The translations under genes and the position numbers were made by a program. The notes below the pieces were generated by a model. That model was not told where the DNA came from and searched no databases. It was given only the letters and a program-made list of their open reading frames with translations. A stretch of 64,000 bases of DNA from the NCBI GenBank assembly GCA_039679675.1, contig JBDKUN010000009.1, forward strand, positions 22,863-86,862, written 5' to 3'. Positions within the stretch are counted from its first letter, which is position 1. Every line of letters starts with the position of its first letter. Shown one piece after another: positions 18,435-25,429 of the stretch. Source of the stretch: Armatimonadota bacterium. Lineage in GTDB: Bacteria > Armatimonadota > UBA5829 > DTLH01.

Positions 18435-19634
18435 CTAATCTGATGGGTCGAACACCTTGTTCAGCGCGAGGAAACCAGCGCCGAGGACGGCTGCATCTTC
18501 ATTTAGTACACTTGGCTCCAGTTTTATCTGCCCCGGCCAGTATTCATACTTCGCCACAGCTTCATGGAGTGAGTTCCAGAAGACATCGCCGGATTTCGAG
18601 ACGCCTCCACTAATTGCAAAGAAGGTAATTCCGAACAGGTTCGTTATATTGACTATTGCGAGTCCAAGATAGTTGGTTGCACAGGCAAATATATCGAGTG
18701 CAAGCTTATCACCTTTCTTTGCTGCTTCCGCCACATCCTTAGCCGTTATGTTCGCGGTAGAAAGTTCAGTAAGCAGGCTCTTTGTACCGGACTCTATGGC
18801 TCTCCTTGCGGCTGCGGCTATACCTTGTCCTGACGCTATCGATTCCAGATACGACCTGCCCCCGAATCTGTCCGGGTCGCCTTCCGGCCCGACTATCATC
18901 ATACCGAACTGGGATATGGCCGCAAGCGGATAAAGCTCCCGGTTTATGACAAAGCTGCCGCCCACGCCGACTCCGATGGCTATGTAGGCAAAACTGTCGT
19001 TCGTTCTCCCATGCCCAAGTTTGGCCTCGGCAAGTGTTGATGAGATTATGTTGTCATAAACTGTAGCCGGGATATTGCACACCTGCCGCGCTATTCTAGC
19101 TATTGGGAAGTTGTTCAGATCAAGGTTGAAACTGAGCTTGACGATACCGAGGTTCGAGTCGACCATTCCGGTGCAGCTGATGCCCATCGCGAGCGGTTTG
19201 CCACGCTTAGGTTCACATTCCTTTAGGAGCCGGTTCATCGTAGATACAATGGCCTGCGCGACTGGCTCCTCTCCACGAACATTATCCAGCGACTGCTCAA
19301 CTGACTCATGTAGGTTTCCGGCGAGGTCCATAGCTGCAGCTTTTATGTGGCTCCCGCCGATCTCCAGCGCAAGAACCCAACATCCGCCTGGCTCTATGTC
19401 CAGAAGCACGGTCCTTCGCTTGGCATTCCCGGTCTTCACGAAGCCGGCCTCCGTCAGGATAGACTCACTCATCAGCTCATCTACAATTCGGCAAACCGTA
19501 GGAAATGATAGCTTGGTCAGCTCGGAGATTTCTTTCCGGCTCATCCGGCCATGAGTTCTCAACGCAGACAGAACCGTCCTGCTATTCTCTTTTTTTAGGA
19601 CCAGATAATTGAAATTCTTTTTAGCTGTTCGCAT
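18435..19634 (-). CDS. ROK family transcriptional repressor
   Basis: N-terminal HTH (MSRKEISELTKLSFPTV), ROK fold, LESIASG. Divergent from a glycosidase-like gene. Confidence 0.9.
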   Translation of the reverse strand: MRTAKKNFNYLVLKKENSRTVLSALRTHGRMSRKEISELTKLSFPTVCRIVDELMSESILTEAGFVKTGNAKRRTVLLDIEPGGCWVLALEIGGSHIKAAAMDLAGNLHESVEQSLDNVRGEEPVAQAIVSTMNRLLKECEPKRGKPLAMGISCTGMVDSNLGIVKLSFNLDLNNFPIARIARQVCNIPATVYDNIISSTLAEAKLGHGRTNDSFAYIAIGVGVGGSFVINRELYPLAAISQFGMMIVGPEGDPDRFGGRSYLESIASGQGIAAAARRAIESGTKSLLTELSTANITAKDVAEAAKKGDKLALDIFACATNYLGLAIVNITNLFGITFFAISGGVSKSGDVFWNSLHEAVAKYEYWPGQIKLEPSVLNEDAAVLGAGFLALNKVFDPSD

Positions 19635-19774
19635 TCTGCAATCTCTTCAGAAATGTTAGAACATTTTAATTATAAACTGCTGGGATGTCAAAAAGTATCA
19701 GTGTGAAACTTATTCTTTAGCTGATAGCTGACTACTGACAGCTAAAGATTAATTCTCACTGTGAATATTAATCT

Positions 19775-19803
19775 TGACAAGCAAACTGGCGCATGATACA
19801 ACA
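19775..19803 (+). promoter_or_regulatory. Sigma70 promoter
   Basis: TTGACA-17 bp-TACAAC with an extended -10 TG. Confidence 0.5.
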
Positions 19804-19847
19804 CTCTTGGTTAAGCTTTAAAATGAGCGTATCAGGAGGAATTAGTA

Positions 19848-22409
19848 GTGGTAATTCGCTCACGTCATTTATATAGGACTATCCTGTTTTTATTCTTGGT
19901 TGTAATAATGGAGGTAATACCATCAATGTCGATGTCGAAGCAGGCTGGCGATGCATCCGCGAAGCTTACGATGAGTTCAAACAGCATTCTCATCAATGAG
20001 CAGGGCTGGGTACTTCCGGTCTCGCTCACATGCCCGGAGTTCGTTTTTGAAGGTAAAACAGTGGGAGTGGGGATAACTCCTGCCGACATTAGGGGAGATA
20101 TTGCACGTAAGCTCGTTACAGCATCTTTTTCTCCAATCGATCTTGATAGCTCAGCAAAACTGGAAGTAAAGCTCCATGTTGAGTGGTCCAAAAAGGAACA
20201 GATTTTACGCAAATGGGCCGAATACAGGATCACTGGAACAGATAGGCCTCTTCTTCTTAAAGAAATAGTGCTCGAACGGCTGGAGACTCCCGGGCAAACG
20301 GCTACAGTTACCATGAAACCTGGGCAGTTCCAGAGCTACCCTGTCTTTGTGCAAGCCTTCTACACCGGAATAGAGTTTCCGGTTGCTGCTGTTCGGTCGG
20401 AAAACGGCAGATTACTCCTTGCGCATCGCCCCGGCATCTACATTCAACCGAACAAATGGTATGAGAGCAAAAAAGCGATATTCGGAGCGGCTCCGGTAGG
20501 TCAGGAAAAACAGAATTTCAAGAACTATATAGCTGCCCACCGCACCAACCCTAAAGGATTCCACATCGACTACAACAGTTGGTGGACAACGAAAGTCCCC
20601 TATTCGGAGGAAGAGATTCTGGACCTGATGCATACATTCAAAGTAAAGATGTTCGAGCCCTGCAAGGAGTGCTTCGACTCTTTCTGCATAGACATGGGCT
20701 GGTCTGAGCCAAAATCCTTCTGGGACATTAACACGAAGCTGTTTCCTGATAAGTTCACCCCGATTATGAAAAAAGCGAAGGAGATGAAGTCGAATCTTGG
20801 CCTATGGATTTCCCCCAGCAATGCCTATACACCGAGCTCGATGGACAACGAGTGGGCGAAGGATAACGGATATGAAACCTTCCCAGTGGATTGGCACGCA
20901 GGCAGGCTGTGCTGCCTGGGCGGAAATAAGTATCAGACAGGATTCAGAGACAGACTTGTTGAGATGGTCACCAAATACGGCATCCGGCAGATAAAGTTCG
21001 ACGGCTATAACGGCCAGTGCCAGGAATCGAACCATGGTCATGCACCTGGTGAATACTCTGCTGAGGCTGTAGCAGAGGGTTTGATCAAATCTTTCGTCGC
21101 AATTCGTCAGGCTGCACCGGACACATGGATGGAAACGACCTGCATGACTTGGAACCCGAGCCCGTGGTGGCTTTTCTATGTGGATTCCGTCATCGGAACA
21201 TACGGCGACGATTCACCTGCAGGCCGAATACCGTGTCCGGTCTACCGGGAGAGCTACACAACAGCAAGAGACTATTACAACCTTCAAGGCGCGGCACTCC
21301 TGCCGATACCGGTAGTCGCACAAGAAGTGCTTGGGATTATTCACCAGACCCCGGAACCGTTTATGGACGACGCTGTGACCACTATTATGCGCGGGCACAT
21401 GTTCCTTCCGGTCTATCTCAATCCGTTATATATGACCGATGCGCGCTGGAAGACTTTTGCAGAGATCCTGACCTGGGCCAGAAAAAATGAGAGTGTCCTG
21501 GAAGAGACTCAGCCGATACTTCCTGATTCATGGCAAAACGGCGCCGTTCCTGAGTTCGAGGAAAACGCAGAAATGCCGCGTGAACCATACGGTTATGCAC
21601 ATTTCAAAGGGAATAGCGGCCTTGTAGAGCTCAGAAACCCCTGGATTACCGGATGCAACTATCTGCTCAAGCTGGACGAAAAGCTCGGACTTGCTTCGGA
21701 TGCAAAAGGGCTTACTGTAGTGAGCCTGTACCCGGAAATCCGCGTTTACGGGCAGAATTTGAGCCCTGGGCAGTCTCTGGATGTTCCGCTTGCTCCCTAT
21801 GAGACCGTGGTGCTCTCCGTAGCTCCGAATCAGCTAGTTAAGGGCATTCCATCCGCAGTCGATGCGCTTAAAGGATGCGGAAAAGTGGAGATCAAGCAGG
21901 TAGAGAAGACCCGCGTAGAGTTTTTGGATGCCAAAGACTACCTTCCAGGAGGTGCGAAGACGGCTGTTAAGCTGAATTTGGGGGCAAATGTGGAAGTTAC
22001 CGCACCGAGTGCCGAGCTTCTGGTCCTTGTAGAAGGAGAAACCCCGGCTGTCACGCCTATCGGCTCTATTGAAGTGAACGGTGTCGAGAAGAAACCCATG
22101 GTCACTGGTTCCGCAACCGGCTGGACAGCAACACAGCTTCCCCCGCACGGACATTGGACATTCCTTTCTGTGCCACTCGAAAAGGGAGAGAATACTATAG
22201 CACTCGATCTCTATGCAGGTATCGGCGTGTACAAGATGTCCGCATGGGTCTGGGCCAAAAAGCCAGGTCTGACGAATGTGCCAAACTACAAGAACGCGCT
22301 TCCTGAGCCGGAGCAGATTTCGCTCCAGTCGGTGGCGCTTGTAGAGCCATTCGATCTCAATTCTGTGACTGTGCCGGTTGCTAAAGAAGATTACCCGCTT
22401 CACAGATAA
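19848..22409 (+). CDS. Secreted alpha-galactosidase-like (GH36-clan) protein
   Basis: YNSWW, FCIDMGW, GLWISP and IKFDG TIM-barrel motifs. Confidence 0.65.
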   Translation: MVIRSRHLYRTILFLFLVVIMEVIPSMSMSKQAGDASAKLTMSSNSILINEQGWVLPVSLTCPEFVFEGKTVGVGITPADIRGDIARKLVTASFSPIDLDSSAKLEVKLHVEWSKKEQILRKWAEYRITGTDRPLLLKEIVLERLETPGQTATVTMKPGQFQSYPVFVQAFYTGIEFPVAAVRSENGRLLLAHRPGIYIQPNKWYESKKAIFGAAPVGQEKQNFKNYIAAHRTNPKGFHIDYNSWWTTKVPYSEEEILDLMHTFKVKMFEPCKECFDSFCIDMGWSEPKSFWDINTKLFPDKFTPIMKKAKEMKSNLGLWISPSNAYTPSSMDNEWAKDNGYETFPVDWHAGRLCCLGGNKYQTGFRDRLVEMVTKYGIRQIKFDGYNGQCQESNHGHAPGEYSAEAVAEGLIKSFVAIRQAAPDTWMETTCMTWNPSPWWLFYVDSVIGTYGDDSPAGRIPCPVYRESYTTARDYYNLQGAALLPIPVVAQEVLGIIHQTPEPFMDDAVTTIMRGHMFLPVYLNPLYMTDARWKTFAEILTWARKNESVLEETQPILPDSWQNGAVPEFEENAEMPREPYGYAHFKGNSGLVELRNPWITGCNYLLKLDEKLGLASDAKGLTVVSLYPEIRVYGQNLSPGQSLDVPLAPYETVVLSVAPNQLVKGIPSAVDALKGCGKVEIKQVEKTRVEFLDAKDYLPGGAKTAVKLNLGANVEVTAPSAELLVLVEGETPAVTPIGSIEVNGVEKKPMVTGSATGWTATQLPPHGHWTFLSVPLEKGENTIALDLYAGIGVYKMSAWVWAKKPGLTNVPNYKNALPEPEQISLQSVALVEPFDLNSVTVPVAKEDYPLHR

Positions 22410-22607
22410 AATGCAGCTTGGACGATTGCAAGAAATCAAATGTTACCAGGCTCGACTATTGCTTACACAGCTTCATCGATAATGTAATGCTTGCAGAACA
22501 ACATACCAAGTAAAGTGGATTATTATTCAAAGCCTATTGACATATTAGAAGGAGCTGAGCGATAATAGGTTGCTTCTTTTTCTCCTTTCACTACCTCAAT
22601 GGAGGGG

Positions 22608-22642
22608 GCTTGGCTGAACGCCCAACAGCCAAGCTATTTTTT
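22608..22642 (+). terminator. Rho-independent terminator
   Basis: GCTTGGCTG-loop-CAGCCAAGC followed by TATTTTTT. Confidence 0.7.
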
Positions 22643-22761
22643 GGAGGAGGCAGCTGCTGTTGGCTGCTCCGAACCCTCTGACGCCTCTTAAACGTAAGAA
22701 AAATGCCTCATTAATCGCTCAAAATATATCGTAATCACTAAGACAAAAGCGATTAACATTC

Positions 22762-22790
22762 TTGACATCTGTGTGTCTGGATGCTAGTAT
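22762..22790 (+). promoter_or_regulatory. Sigma70 promoter for the ncRNA-RT transcript
   Basis: TTGACA (22762-67), 17 bp spacer, TAGTAT (22785-90) with extended -10 TG. Confidence 0.8.
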
Positions 22791-22796
22791 TAATAT

Positions 22797-23110
22797 GCTC
22801 TTCCGTTAAGCGCGAAGAGGTATGGCGTTCACTTTGTCAACCACCCACTGAACAGCTGCATTAAGCTGAACAGTGACCGTGATATGGCACACTGCCTGAA
22901 GAACAGTGGCAACCACAGTCGCTGTCCAGGTAAGCACGAACTGTACGTCATAGTCATTATAGCTCGGAATGTTTCCTTGCGGGCTTCTGGTCTTTCAGAA
23001 GGACAATGTCTCACGCTAACAGCATGGGCGTTGAGTGTGCGCGGGGGGAGGATGCAGTCGGATACCGCAAGTCCGCTTCCCCTCGCTTTGCTTTTAACCT
23101 ATAGCGAGGA
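22797..23110 (+). ncRNA. DRT2-associated ncRNA (template ~22827-22970 plus 3' scaffold)
   Basis: Lies between a strong promoter and a DRT2-like RT. Many hairpins (CTCTTC/GAAGAG; CACTG-aa-CAGCT/AGCTG-aa-CAGTG; CTTCTG/CAGAAG; GCGGGGGGA/TCCCCTCGC). Contains antisense -35 (TGTCAA 22835-40) and -10 (ATTATA 22956-61). Confidence 0.85.
22827..22970 (-). other. neo: Cryptic Neo-like repeat unit (144 nt, 48 codons), complete only in concatemeric cDNA
   Basis: Stop-free frame IPSYNDYDVQFVLTWTATVVATVLQAVCHITVTVQLNAAVQWVVDKVN. The head-to-tail junction rebuilds TTGACA-aagtgaacattccgagc-TATAAT. Confidence 0.75.
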
Positions 23111-23112
23111 CC

Positions 23113-24372
23113 ATGTGTAGTATGGAAACACCGCAGTGGTATAAGAATCGCGAGTACCCACATTTCGATAAACCCCTATCAATAGCAGCAGCCATTAAGC
23201 TTGTAGAAAATAAGCAAGAGGTTGAAAAGCACGCTTTCCTCCCTTTTATAAAGTGGCAGATAACTGAACGTAGATATAAGCGCAAGTTACACAGAACTGG
23301 ATTAAAGTGTCGCAGTATTGCTTGCGCTGCACATACAGACTCTCACATATTTGCCTATTATGCATCTTTATTGAATGCCTTGTATGAAGAAAAATTAGCT
23401 ACTCTGGATATTGGCGATTGTGTTCTAGCCTACAGGCGCTTTGGAGGTAAATGCAATATTCACTTTGCACAAGAAGCATTTGAGCACATAAAGAGCTTAA
23501 AATCTTGTCGTGTCATGGCGCTTGATGTAAAGGGGTTTTTTGATAATATTGATCATCTATTGCTAAAGAAAGCATGGTGCCAATTGCTCGGCGTTAGTCG
23601 ATTACCGAAAGATCATTATGTTGTTTATAAAGCGATGACCCGTTATGCTTATGTGAATAAAGACGCACTATACAAGGAATTTGAGATTGGACGTCGACGT
23701 GCAGCTAAACTGAAGGGTTCCATATGTTCACCTCTTGAATTTAGAACAAAGGTCAGAGCTGGAAACCTGATTAACGTTCATACTGATACTTATGGGATTC
23801 CACAAGGATCACCTATCAGCGCCGTCTTATCAAACTTGTATCTTTTGTCTTTTGATATTGCACTGTCTGACAAAGTCAAAGAGTGTGGCGGCTTGTATAG
23901 ACGCTACAGCGATGACATTCTCGTTGTATGTCCCCTCTTCAAGGACTGCTGTTTAGATTTTATCAAAGAACACCTGCATAAACTGAAACTCGACCTTAGT
24001 GAAGACAAAACTACCATCACAAATCTAGGTAAAGATGAGAGCGTTACAAAAAACACTAGTATACAATACCTTGGATTGGAATTGATAAATGGTCAAATTC
24101 TCATTCGTCATAAAGCTATTGCCAGATATCAGCGGAGAATGAAAGAATCTGTTCGTTCAACAATTAGAGCAGCAAATAAAGCCAAAAGAAAGGGGTCAAC
24201 CGGGGAGGCATATAAGCGCAAACTATACGAACGCTTTACTCATCTTAGTAAAAACAGCAGTTATCCTCAATATATCAAGCGGGCCTCTAGGATAACGAGT
24301 TCAGAAGCCATTACGAAGCAGCATCGAAATCATTGGCAGCAGTTACACGACTTACTTAAGCATAGACGCTAA
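23113..24372 (+). CDS. drt2: Antiviral reverse transcriptase, DRT type 2 (UG2)
   Basis: N-terminus WYKNREYPHFDKP...HAFLPFI, AAHTDSHIFAYY, KCNIHFA, LDVKGFFDNIDH, LPKDHYVVYK, GIPQGSPISAVLSNLYL, YRRYSDD, QYLG. This matches my recollection of DRT2 RTs along the full ~420 aa. AT-richer than its neighbours. Confidence 0.9.
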   Translation: MCSMETPQWYKNREYPHFDKPLSIAAAIKLVENKQEVEKHAFLPFIKWQITERRYKRKLHRTGLKCRSIACAAHTDSHIFAYYASLLNALYEEKLATLDIGDCVLAYRRFGGKCNIHFAQEAFEHIKSLKSCRVMALDVKGFFDNIDHLLLKKAWCQLLGVSRLPKDHYVVYKAMTRYAYVNKDALYKEFEIGRRRAAKLKGSICSPLEFRTKVRAGNLINVHTDTYGIPQGSPISAVLSNLYLLSFDIALSDKVKECGGLYRRYSDDILVVCPLFKDCCLDFIKEHLHKLKLDLSEDKTTITNLGKDESVTKNTSIQYLGLELINGQILIRHKAIARYQRRMKESVRSTIRAANKAKRKGSTGEAYKRKLYERFTHLSKNSSYPQYIKRASRITSSEAITKQHRNHWQQLHDLLKHRR

Positions 24373-24514
24373 CAGCCTGTCATTTATAATTGTAGCTAGA
24401 CACACTATTTAGAAATTCCTCTATGATCTCCAAGCATCGATAATACCCAATCTTTATGATTGCTACAAATTGTTGATTTGGCTTGCTCAATATGGTAAAC
24501 TAAAAAGGTTTGCA

Positions 24515-24600
24515 TCACGCACCGCATCCGGATCGGCTGCCGGGGTGCCTCTAAGAGGTCGGCGCCGGGGTGATGGAGCGGGAGGTAATAACTAACAAGG
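24515..24600 (+). ncRNA. rpsB 5' leader (t44/S2 autoregulatory RNA)
   Basis: CAC...CCGGGGTGCCTCTAAGAGGTCGG...GGAGGTAATAAC closely resembles the E. coli rpsB leader. Extended -10 TGGTAAACT upstream. Confidence 0.75.
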
Positions 24601-24613
24601 AGGAAATCAAAAC

Positions 24614-25429
24614 TTGGCATCGATCACAATGAAAGAACTGCTGGAGGCAGGGGTACACTTCGGCCACCAGACCCGCAGATGGAACCCTAAGATGAAAAGG
24701 TACATCTACGGAGGCCGGAACGGTATCTACATCATCGACCTGCATCAGACACTCAAGCTCTTTGAAGAGGCCCGGCAGTTCGTGCAGGACGTAGTCGCCG
24801 AAGGAGAAGTCGTTCTCTTCGTAGGGACAAAGAAACAGGCTCAGGACGCCGTCCAGGAAGCAGCAAAGCGCTGCGGTATGTATTATGTCGACCAGAGATG
24901 GCTCGGCGGCATGCTCACAAACTTCCGCACAATCCAGACCAGAATAGCCCGCTTGAACGAGCTCAAAAAGATGGCGGAGGACGGAGTATTCGAGCAGTTG
25001 CCCAAGAAGGAAGCAGCCCTTCTCCGTGAGGAGTCGGACAGGCTGGAGCGGTTCCTCGGCGGTATCAAGGATATGCCCAAGCTCCCCGGCGCTATGTTCA
25101 TCGTCGACCTGAAGAAGGAGCGCATAGCTCTTGCTGAGGCCAGAAAGCTCGACATTCCTGTTGTAGCCATCGTAGACACAAACTGCGACCCGGACGAAGT
25201 AGATTACGTAATTCCCGGCAATGATGACGCTATCCGCGCCATCAAGCTGATCTCGAATAAGATCGCCGACGCTATCCTTGAAGTCCGGCAGGTAGAGACT
25301 GAGGGCGAAGAGGTAGAGGCTGAGGCCGAGGGCGCTGAAGCTGAAGCGGAAAAACCTGAGGCAGAGGCTGAAGGCGAGACTTCGGAAGAGGCCGCAGCAT
25401 TCCTGAGCGAAGCTCCAGAAGCCGAATAA
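24614..25429 (+). CDS. rpsB: 30S ribosomal protein S2
   Basis: [22 protein letters not shown]; PGNDDAIRA. Confidence 0.99.

Follow-up and report, generated by a model that had tools for sequence, protein, structure and literature searches.

Within a 64,000-nt stretch of an Armatimonadota genome (GenBank assembly GCA_039679675.1, contig JBDKUN010000009.1, positions 22,863 to 86,862 of the forward strand; hereafter the window) lies a reverse transcriptase (RT) gene preceded by a leader of about 316 nt. A first-pass annotation made from the letters alone had noted a 419-aa RT with a YSDD motif at this place, and proposed that gene and leader form a stand-alone antiphage system of defence-associated reverse transcriptase type 2 (DRT2). 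The open reading frame (ORF) was found as described, and the start chosen by gene callers shortens the protein slightly (Table 1). In Klebsiella, according to two accounts, DRT2 comprises a ~280-nt noncoding RNA (ncRNA) whose 120-nt template lies between two ACA triplets. The unit length is divisible by 3 and one antisense frame is free of stops. Promoter elements -35 and -10 stand 17 bp apart only across the junction of repeated units, with a ribosome-binding site plus a start codon after the -10 (10.1101/2024.05.08.593200; PMC12039810).

Table 1. Features at the DRT2 locus, in coordinates of the window.
Feature	Position	Strand	Remarks
Genome-specific segment: promoter, ncRNA, RT gene, 90-nt tail	22681..24462	.	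homology breaks against same-genus genome G001; GC drop
Predicted sigma-70 promoter of ncRNA and RT, TTGACA-17-TAGTAT, TG before -10	22762..22790	+	10/12 consensus matches
Predicted DRT2 ncRNA (5' handle, template, 3' scaffold)	22797..23112	+	~316 nt to ATG; 5' end placed from promoter
Putative 5' handle hairpin (CUCUUCCGU...GCG.GAAGAG)	22798..22819	+	single-sequence folds of class leaders
GGC, left half of a short basal stem able to pair with jump site 2 (SL2-like)	22824..22826	+	pairs C-G, G.U, G.U
Predicted template and neo repeat unit	22827..22970	-	144 nt; antisense frame 0 stop-free across junction, 48 aa per repeat
Predicted jump site 1, GTT, first 3 nt of template, counterpart of ACA-1	22827..22829	+	GTT-N5-TGTCAA conserved in clade; ATT in L109, L130
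-35 half of junction promoter, TTGACA (sense TGTCAA)	22835..22840	-	pair search
First in-frame neo start candidate, GTG	22935..22937	-	unit index 33; no GGAG before
-10 half of junction promoter, TATAAT (sense ATTATA)	22956..22961	-	17-bp spacer only over 144-nt repeat junction
Predicted jump site 2, GTT, immediately 3' of template, counterpart of ACA-2	22971..22973	+	ATTATA-N9-GTT conserved in clade
Possible pseudoknot strand UUGCGG	22977..22982	+	complementary to tower-loop CCGCAA 23065-23070
3' scaffold: tower stem 23041-23048 x 23079-23086, loop CCGCAA 23065-23070, UUUGCU 23087-23092	23022..23099	+	covariance model R1
Drt2 reverse transcriptase ORF	23113..24372	+	419 aa, motif RRYSDDILVV; gene-caller start 23122 gives 416 aa

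The RT is Drt2 according to two independent profile libraries, one of them with a curated cut-off, and to full-length alignment with the solved Klebsiella enzyme. NCBIfam equivalog NF041746 scored 480.6 bits (cut-off 390) and the two PADLOC Drt2 models matched with E values of 1.2e-146 and 1.4e-136, the next RT class following at 1.5e-23; the DRT2/UG2 assignment expected of defence models is thereby confirmed. Residues 8-411 aligned to residues 7-419 of the 425-aa Klebsiella chain 9c0i_A (E 6.6e-91), and a second solved Klebsiella chain, 9lje_A, gave the identical 7-419 match. A protein search recovered 1261 relatives among 4396 candidates, several bearing the NCBI name Drt2; the nearest was 51% identical and the others among the matches listed were 39-47% identical. 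In a 30-RT Drt2 alignment (A1), of which the window sequence is itself a row, all 40 invariant columns were retained, and YSDD was intact with Y265, D267 and D268 invariant.

The RVT_1 core is common to DRT2, retrons, remnants of group II introns and the other DRT classes, and weak matches to these alternatives were present. The group II RT/maturase model TIGR04416 reached 82.9 bits against a cut-off of 300 and the retron St85 RT profile 54.7 against 235, while the best retron-type PADLOC profile gave E 1e-15 as opposed to 1e-146 for Drt2. Across retron, group II intron and other DRT profiles, every score was below cut-off and at least 20 orders of magnitude poorer than that of Drt2. RVT_1 was the only Pfam domain, with no maturase or endonuclease domain found, in line with the earlier remark that an intron-type C-terminal endonuclease is missing. 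An Rfam scan of 22300-24700 returned no group II intron or retron RNA family at E ≤ 1. We regard an identity other than DRT2 as extremely improbable. The first-pass annotation had also set YSDD apart from YCDD in Klebsiella. That difference is genuine, being visible in the alignment to 9lje_A and reported in both accounts (10.1101/2024.05.08.593200; PMC12039810). As a mark of lineage it did not hold up: RRYSDD is the consensus in Drt2 alignments of 30 and of 19 RTs, where YCDD is a minority form, and YSDD is therefore no marker of the window lineage.

In the leader, a 5' hairpin and a conserved 3' scaffold accompany a template that combines a split promoter with an antisense frame free of stops; together these support the identification of the leader as a DRT2-type ncRNA. 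For the scaffold, covariance model R1 was built from 14 other loci with the window left out. Over both strands of the 64 kb it gave a sole significant match, in the leader (37.2 bits, E 2.3e-7; runner-up E 1.8). The alignment of 15 scaffolds has an 8-bp tower stem with compensatory changes in 8/8 pairs. R1 also matched further members of the clade and gave weaker matches to 6 of the 13 loci tested from the canonical clade, so the scaffold is homologous across DRT2. At the other end, 12 of the 16 class leaders folded have a hairpin of differing stem sequence within the 36 nt 5' of jump site 1, its 3' strand ending 0-7 nt before that site (z -1.5 to -3.7 against shuffles). The 5' hairpins of L068, L126 and L150 gave z of -0.5 to +0.5, and that of L065 lies further upstream. 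RNAalifold on a MAFFT alignment of the 5' handle found 0 pairs, the hairpins being out of register in that alignment. Folding of the whole leader was only modestly better than chance (minimum free energy z = -1.8; 5 of 100 shuffles folded equally well). Of the first-pass description as a ~310-nt hairpin-rich leader, the length and the individual elements stand, and hairpin richness of the whole is modestly supported.

The promoter predicted ahead of the leader had likewise been noted before and was recovered. By itself its consensus match is not beyond chance, since a scan of 22300-24700 gave 5 promoter-like sites against a shuffle expectation of 5.0. What counts for this predicted promoter is its location, about 7 nt ahead of the 5' hairpin; a similar promoter precedes the hairpin in L002, a relative described below. 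A pseudoknot between 22977-82 and 23065-70 is plausible. The same UUGCGG/CCGCAA pairing occurs in L018, L033, L065, L062 and L110, with GCAGC x GCUGC in L011. We keep it as a suggestion because none of the helix tests was significant (200 shuffles per sequence).

The leader also holds the halves of a promoter that exists only when the template is repeated head to tail. TTGACA and TATAAT, read on the antisense strand, come to stand 17 bp apart across the junction of 144-nt units and match the consensus at 12 of 12 positions. In 128 kb (both strands of the window), this TGTCAA/ATTATA pair is the sole perfect one to give a unit of 60-240 nt, and a relaxed form of the whole signature was found at 3 other places among 1274 tiles. 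A length of 144 nt is a multiple of 3, and around the circle antisense frame 0 stays open with frames 1 and 2 closed. Of the 48 residues in each predicted repeat, 26 are hydrophobic, 12 of these being Val; no Pfam match was found for the repeat. The first-pass guess of a template 24 nt longer than that of Klebsiella was therefore right (144 vs 120 nt). Two weaker routes to a unit were discarded. An open circular antisense frame as sole criterion is uninformative, 5657 candidate units in the leader passing it. The unit 22889-23002 between two ACA triplets (114 nt, open) leaves the -35 outside and provides no internal partner for the -10.

The arrangement closely parallels that of the Klebsiella system (KpnDRT2, structure 9c0i; Tang et al. 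2024, Wilkinson et al. 2024). Both have a single RT-only protein of about 420 aa, alignable end to end, and a same-strand upstream ncRNA under one promoter, with 5' hairpin, template and 3' tower scaffold in that order. In both, two identical triplets flank the template, the second in a short basal stem, and -35 and -10 halves meet at 17 bp over the junction of a unit that is divisible by 3, has one stop-free antisense frame and encodes a hydrophobic repeat. The window RT, in contrast, is about 40% identical to that of Klebsiella (estimated by eye from the alignment). Its triplets are GTT/GTT in place of ACA/ACA, in its register 8 nt follow the -35 and 9 nt precede the -10 instead of 6 and 11, and its unit is 144 nt (48 aa) instead of 120 nt (40 aa). 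It has YSDD rather than YCDD, a neo frame with neither ATG nor Shine-Dalgarno sequence, no RT-12 match and an Armatimonadota host, and is known here from sequence alone. The locus agrees with DRT2 in every protein feature and in the logic of the template, and departs from it in the identity of the ACA triplets and in the Rfam motif. What truly sets it apart is its pair of GTT sites, the register shift, the RT-12/RT-13 miss and the lack of a Shine-Dalgarno sequence; YSDD is not one of these features.

DRT2 loci with their upstream DNA were compared, 80 from genomes and 80 from metagenomes. Canonical loci follow ACA-N3-TGTCAA … ATTATA-N11-ACA, and in 16 of them the unit length is a multiple of 3 and a single frame is open (17 of 22 pattern matches). 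The window and L018, L031, L033, L068 and L069 instead follow GTT-N5-TGTCAA … ATTATA-N9-GTT; the length is divisible by 3 and frame 0 open in all six, L069 having an additional weaker pattern match with a length of 166. In an unbiased pass, in which the best -35/-10 pair was chosen per leader regardless of length, 63 of the 71 leaders with an unambiguous pair combined a 17-bp spacer at the junction with a length that is a multiple of 3, about 24 being expected by chance. The open-frame count of 48 in this pass is a lower bound, as the fixed offset fits the GTT class only. The same pass added further loci in the same register, namely L112, L126, L139, L142, L144 and L150 with GTT, and L109 and L130 with ATT at both sites.

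Among the loci that carry GTT/GTT or ATT/ATT at offset 8, each has a single open frame, and in every case this is frame 0 (13/13, or 14/14 when L002 is included). Their units take ten different lengths from 81 to 144 nt, which implies that insertions and deletions repeatedly preserved the frame. Where ATT replaces GTT it does so at both sites jointly, and in frame 0 the change is synonymous (AAC/AAT, both Asn). The basal stem, formed by the three bases 5' of site 1 and by site 2, pairs in 36 of 42 cells in the 14 loci, compared with 12-24 of 42 when the register is slid. This agrees with Klebsiella, where the basal stem SL2 is described as weak and having to melt for the jump.

Taken together, these features are consistent with a Klebsiella-like mechanism, here reconstructed by analogy. 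A single promoter would transcribe both the ~316-nt ncRNA and the Drt2 RT gene, and the RT would bind the ncRNA through its 5' hairpin and 3' tower scaffold. It would then copy the 144-nt template from 22970 to 22827. Once GUU-1 (22827-29) had been copied, the nascent 3' end could re-pair with GUU-2 (22971-73), an identical triplet that a weak basal stem with GGC 22824-26 would otherwise sequester, and copying would restart, amounting to rolling-circle reverse transcription. In the resulting double-stranded head-to-tail cDNA, TTGACA and TATAAT would be joined at a 17-bp spacer. Transcription of this concatemer would give an mRNA with a never-stopping frame 0 encoding the Val-rich, hydrophobic 48-residue repeat, Neo, which would arrest the infected cell. 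We consider it likely that the locus is a DRT2 system with a GTT-bounded 144-nt neo unit working in this way. The steps of cDNA synthesis, jumping, phage triggering, toxicity and defence are inferred from the Klebsiella work; the earlier labels of a 'complete' and an 'abortive infection' system are likewise inferences.

Several observations weigh against this interpretation. No ACA pair flanks the template; ACA occurs at 7 places in the leader, none of them bounding a unit that rebuilds the promoter. The class loci were chosen by the same triplet identity that was later counted, and several are close kin. Rfam RT-12 and RT-13, motifs likewise situated immediately upstream of Drt2 genes, gave no match at E ≤ 1 in 22300-24700. 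As a control, RT-12 (RF03016) picked up the 3' scaffold in three of four canonical loci, namely L028, L014 and L030. RT-13 (RF03017) matched GTT-class locus L150 at the tower; in the other 8 of 9 GTT-class loci tested, no match to either model was found. The covariance-model search of the leader recommended in the first-pass annotation was thus negative for the Rfam models and positive for R1. Frame 0 has no ATG, and its first start candidate is a GTG that lacks a preceding GGAG. Differences between related units fall 15, 14 and 18 by codon position (two pairs), with no enrichment at the third, so the peptide sequence is not visibly under purifying selection. The coding case therefore consists of frame maintenance, absence of stops and start signals, with no share for peptide conservation; the same is reported for relatives of the Klebsiella system (PMC12039810). 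The supporting RNA contig, described below, is 159 nt long, carries no strand information, has a depth of 5.6 and was obtained in the study that also produced the likely source sample. Finally, a second 3-nt homology, CTT at 22832 and 22976, defines a unit of equal length, 144 nt, and would open the ATG-containing frame 1.

This last point leads to a variant in which the same DRT2 system jumps via CTT/CTT (22832-34 and 22976-78), giving unit 22832-22975 and an endless ATG-containing frame (…AIMTMTYSSCLPGQRLWLPLFF…). The 17-bp junction promoter would be identical, and frames 0 and 2 of the CTT unit are open. Two ATGs of frame 1 adjoin the -10, and a near-leaderless mRNA could be translated from one of them; with the GTT junction this frame is interrupted by a single stop, TGA 22831-22829. 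Comparison with relatives argues for GTT. A matched triplet at offset 3 from the -35 (CTT/CTA) occurs elsewhere only in L168 and L178, whose promoter pairs are ambiguous and whose unit lengths are no multiples of 3. At offset 8, (G/A)TT stands in 14 loci, and its two sites change jointly. Frame 1 carries 1 to 5 stops in the other 12 class loci, and by our own estimate a 3-nt match at one of about 17 offsets arises by chance in about a quarter of cases. We therefore judge CTT-mediated jumping improbable. In the genomic sequence, the ATG-containing frame 1 forms a 61-aa antisense ORF at 22829-23014 (-), whose TGA falls two codons before the predicted junction; PADLOC gave no match to it.

The weak start region could alternatively mean that the locus is DRT2 by descent with a decayed or weakly expressed effector arm, in which RT and scaffold are intact, little or no Neo is made and no defence results. 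The window alone among 13 class loci lacks GGAG between -10 and start; in the other 12, GGAG is present together with a start codon at index 27-42. Shine-Dalgarno sequences are used by the host (AAGGAGG before rpsB, GAGG before the RT), and the broken Drt2 gene of same-order relative G031 indicates that decay occurs in the group. Against decay stand a 12/12 junction promoter, a 48-codon frame that stays open with the other two closed and holds five in-frame GTG codons, an RT that keeps 40/40 invariant A1 columns (as a row of that alignment), and a leader sequence found in an RNA library. We consider a decayed effector unlikely and retain the GTT-bounded neo unit. If so, a perfect junction promoter with neither Shine-Dalgarno sequence nor ATG would amount to a natural experiment, on a small scale, in the initiation of neo translation.

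In a metatranscriptome, one 159-nt contig covered 22810-22967 with no mismatch. It contains the 3' strand of the 5' hairpin and 141 of the 144 template bases, and since it reaches left of jump site 1 its source is the linear leader rather than a concatemer. The locus was complete in two DNA runs of the same study, which may be its source. No repeat junction appeared in any run, and the metatranscriptome yielded no contig over the RT gene or the 3' scaffold; as the runs were compared as assembled contigs, which cannot show repeat junctions, strand, level or RNA ends, these negatives have no bearing on expression or concatemers. The contig is accordingly weak support for the presence of the leader as RNA.

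In a quick maximum-likelihood tree of 76 RTs, the six GTT loci fall in a 17-row clade (Shimodaira-Hasegawa-like approximate likelihood ratio test, SH-aLRT, 95), and all 16 ACA loci in the other clade of 59 rows. The window RT has a long branch (1.25), its closest neighbours being two Phycisphaerales loci. With moderate confidence, we propose a distinct DRT2 lineage, present in Armatimonadota, Planctomycetota, Alphaproteobacteria, Melainabacteria and metagenomes, that jumps via GUU/GUU or AUU/AUU at a shifted register, and whose rule recovers never-ending ORFs in published Neo-negative clades. In the preprint (10.1101/2024.05.08.593200), Neo annotation in divergent DRT2 clades is called 'more challenging' and Table S1 flags rows as 'Neo identified' = 0. 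Four alphaproteobacterial rows among these (Agrobacterium, Sphingomonas, Ancylobacter and Devosia) by eye display a window-like GTT-N5-(-35) … (-10)-N9-GTT. For these four rows Neo is recorded as not identified, unlike the prediction for the window. In three of them the printed cDNA is 125 nt by hand count, 4 nt under the GTT-to-GTT unit of 129 nt. A text-term search of Table S1 gave 0 occurrences of the window locus, the GTT-class loci or Armatimonadota. No paper on non-ACA DRT2 jump sites was found in a full-text literature search that covered Tang et al. as preprint and not in its final journal version. The family is known, and the variant with a GTT jump rule was not found described in the literature searched, as the first-pass annotation had anticipated in suspecting an uncharacterized lineage variant. 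Tandem-repeat DNA is also made by an RT and ncRNA in DRT10 and telomerase-like repeat synthesis; according to published abstracts, DRT10 is protein-primed and has a separate SLATT effector, whereas here no effector gene is present and the repeat itself is the predicted gene.

DRT2 is among the most unusual mechanisms of gene expression known, with a gene that exists only after reverse transcription. If the proposed lineage is real, the jump would be set by any matched triplet together with a weak basal stem and not by ACA as such, and the difference between GTT and ACA would give a direct handle on what programmes template jumping. Neo synthesis would then be general to DRT2, with no 'alternative mechanisms' required in divergent clades. 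The window and 13 relatives suggest a simpler answer, namely the same mechanism with another jump triplet and register. The hosts in which Neo can be predicted would widen to phyla such as Armatimonadota and Planctomycetota, and Rfam models RT-12 and RT-13 and an ACA-based pipeline are seen to under-call GTT-class systems.

Other loci in the collection apparently use further matched boundaries or registers (L088, L143, L152-L162, L165, L166, L169, L184 and L186; L022, L026, L027, L050, L111 and L113; L044, L055 and L060). Gut-metagenome and Gemmiger-type DRT2 show ATTG about 5 nt from the -35 and units of 138-153 nt. The boundary sequences are CAA or CAG in Pseudomonas-type DRT2 and (A)TCT in the Acinetobacter type. 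On the metagenome contig of L112, a tRNA gene (36-108) lies about 300 nt upstream of the GTT-class DRT2 unit and may be an integration hotspot.

Horizontal acquisition of the locus, as previously suggested, is supported by absence from a same-genus genome, a break in homology and a drop in GC content. Homology to G001 ends at 22680 (G001:C86, 80% identity) and picks up again at about 24463 (G001:C4), delimiting a 1.78-kb unit specific to the window genome that holds a single gene. GC content is 0.39-0.41 in the RT compared with 0.52-0.57 in the flanks, as expected from the earlier description of AT-richer DNA. No Drt2 was found in G001, which is 96% complete, and across 41 related genomes a Drt2-level match occurred only in the window genome (E 4.6e-148) and in G031 (E 2.2e-99, broken gene). 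We conclude that the DRT2 system is real, was acquired horizontally and is probably functional.

The check for an empty site in related genomes, which the first-pass annotation had called for, yielded no clean one: G001 is rearranged at the locus, its left flank continuing into phosphofructokinase and other housekeeping genes. The rpsB contig of G001 ends 282 nt upstream of rpsB, with only the last ~150 nt matching the window, and in family-level genomes G002-G005 the 7 kb upstream of rpsB matched nothing in the window. A 24-nt imperfect inverted repeat (22771-22794/24382-24405) was rejected as border of the unit and put down to chance; with 18/24 matches it only ties with the best of 30 shuffles, and it was absent in 12 other loci.

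The Drt2 locus of G031 (L002; G031:C53, ~1080-2640) is a GTT-class DRT2 in a same-order Armatimonadota genome, with an apparently intact leader that has a 132-nt unit, frame 0 open and an R1 score of 47.7 bits. The RT gene there, by contrast, is spread across three frames and interrupted by a stop, through either decay or assembly error.

Downstream of the unit, rpsB begins at 24614 and is followed by tsf-pyrH-frr-uppS; the neighbouring elongation factor EF-Ts is 95% identical to that of an Armatimonadota metagenome-assembled genome. No defence gene was found within 13 kb upstream. PADLOC returned no defence match in six ORFs of at least 150 aa (9-19.6 kb), in the 853-aa neighbour or in two small ORFs over the leader, bearing out the earlier statement that no effector gene adjoins the RT. 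The position between a glycosidase gene and rpsB was confirmed on the rpsB side. For the upstream 853-aa protein, no Pfam, NCBIfam or PDB sequence match was found; its look-alikes by language model and structure are alpha-galactosidase-like clusters, so that the glycosidase label is a plausible lead only.

G001 lacks the 853-aa gene and a gene for a ROK-family regulator (18435-22409) at the corresponding position, the flanks there being ~100 bp apart; this region looks like a second strain-specific insertion adjoining the DRT2 unit. The intergenic region 22397-22680 is 80% conserved with G001 (C86:894-1175) and contains a promoter-like TTGACA-18-GATAAT (22537-22566) and a GC-rich hairpin with a T-run (~22609-22645). 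It may encode a small RNA or small ORF that has its own terminator. On the other side, the rpsB 5' region 24463-24613 is almost identical to that of G001 and includes a match to t44 RNA (RF00127) at 24500-24592 of 29.6 bits, below the gathering score of 44; in Armatimonadota this region probably acts as a regulatory leader of rpsB.

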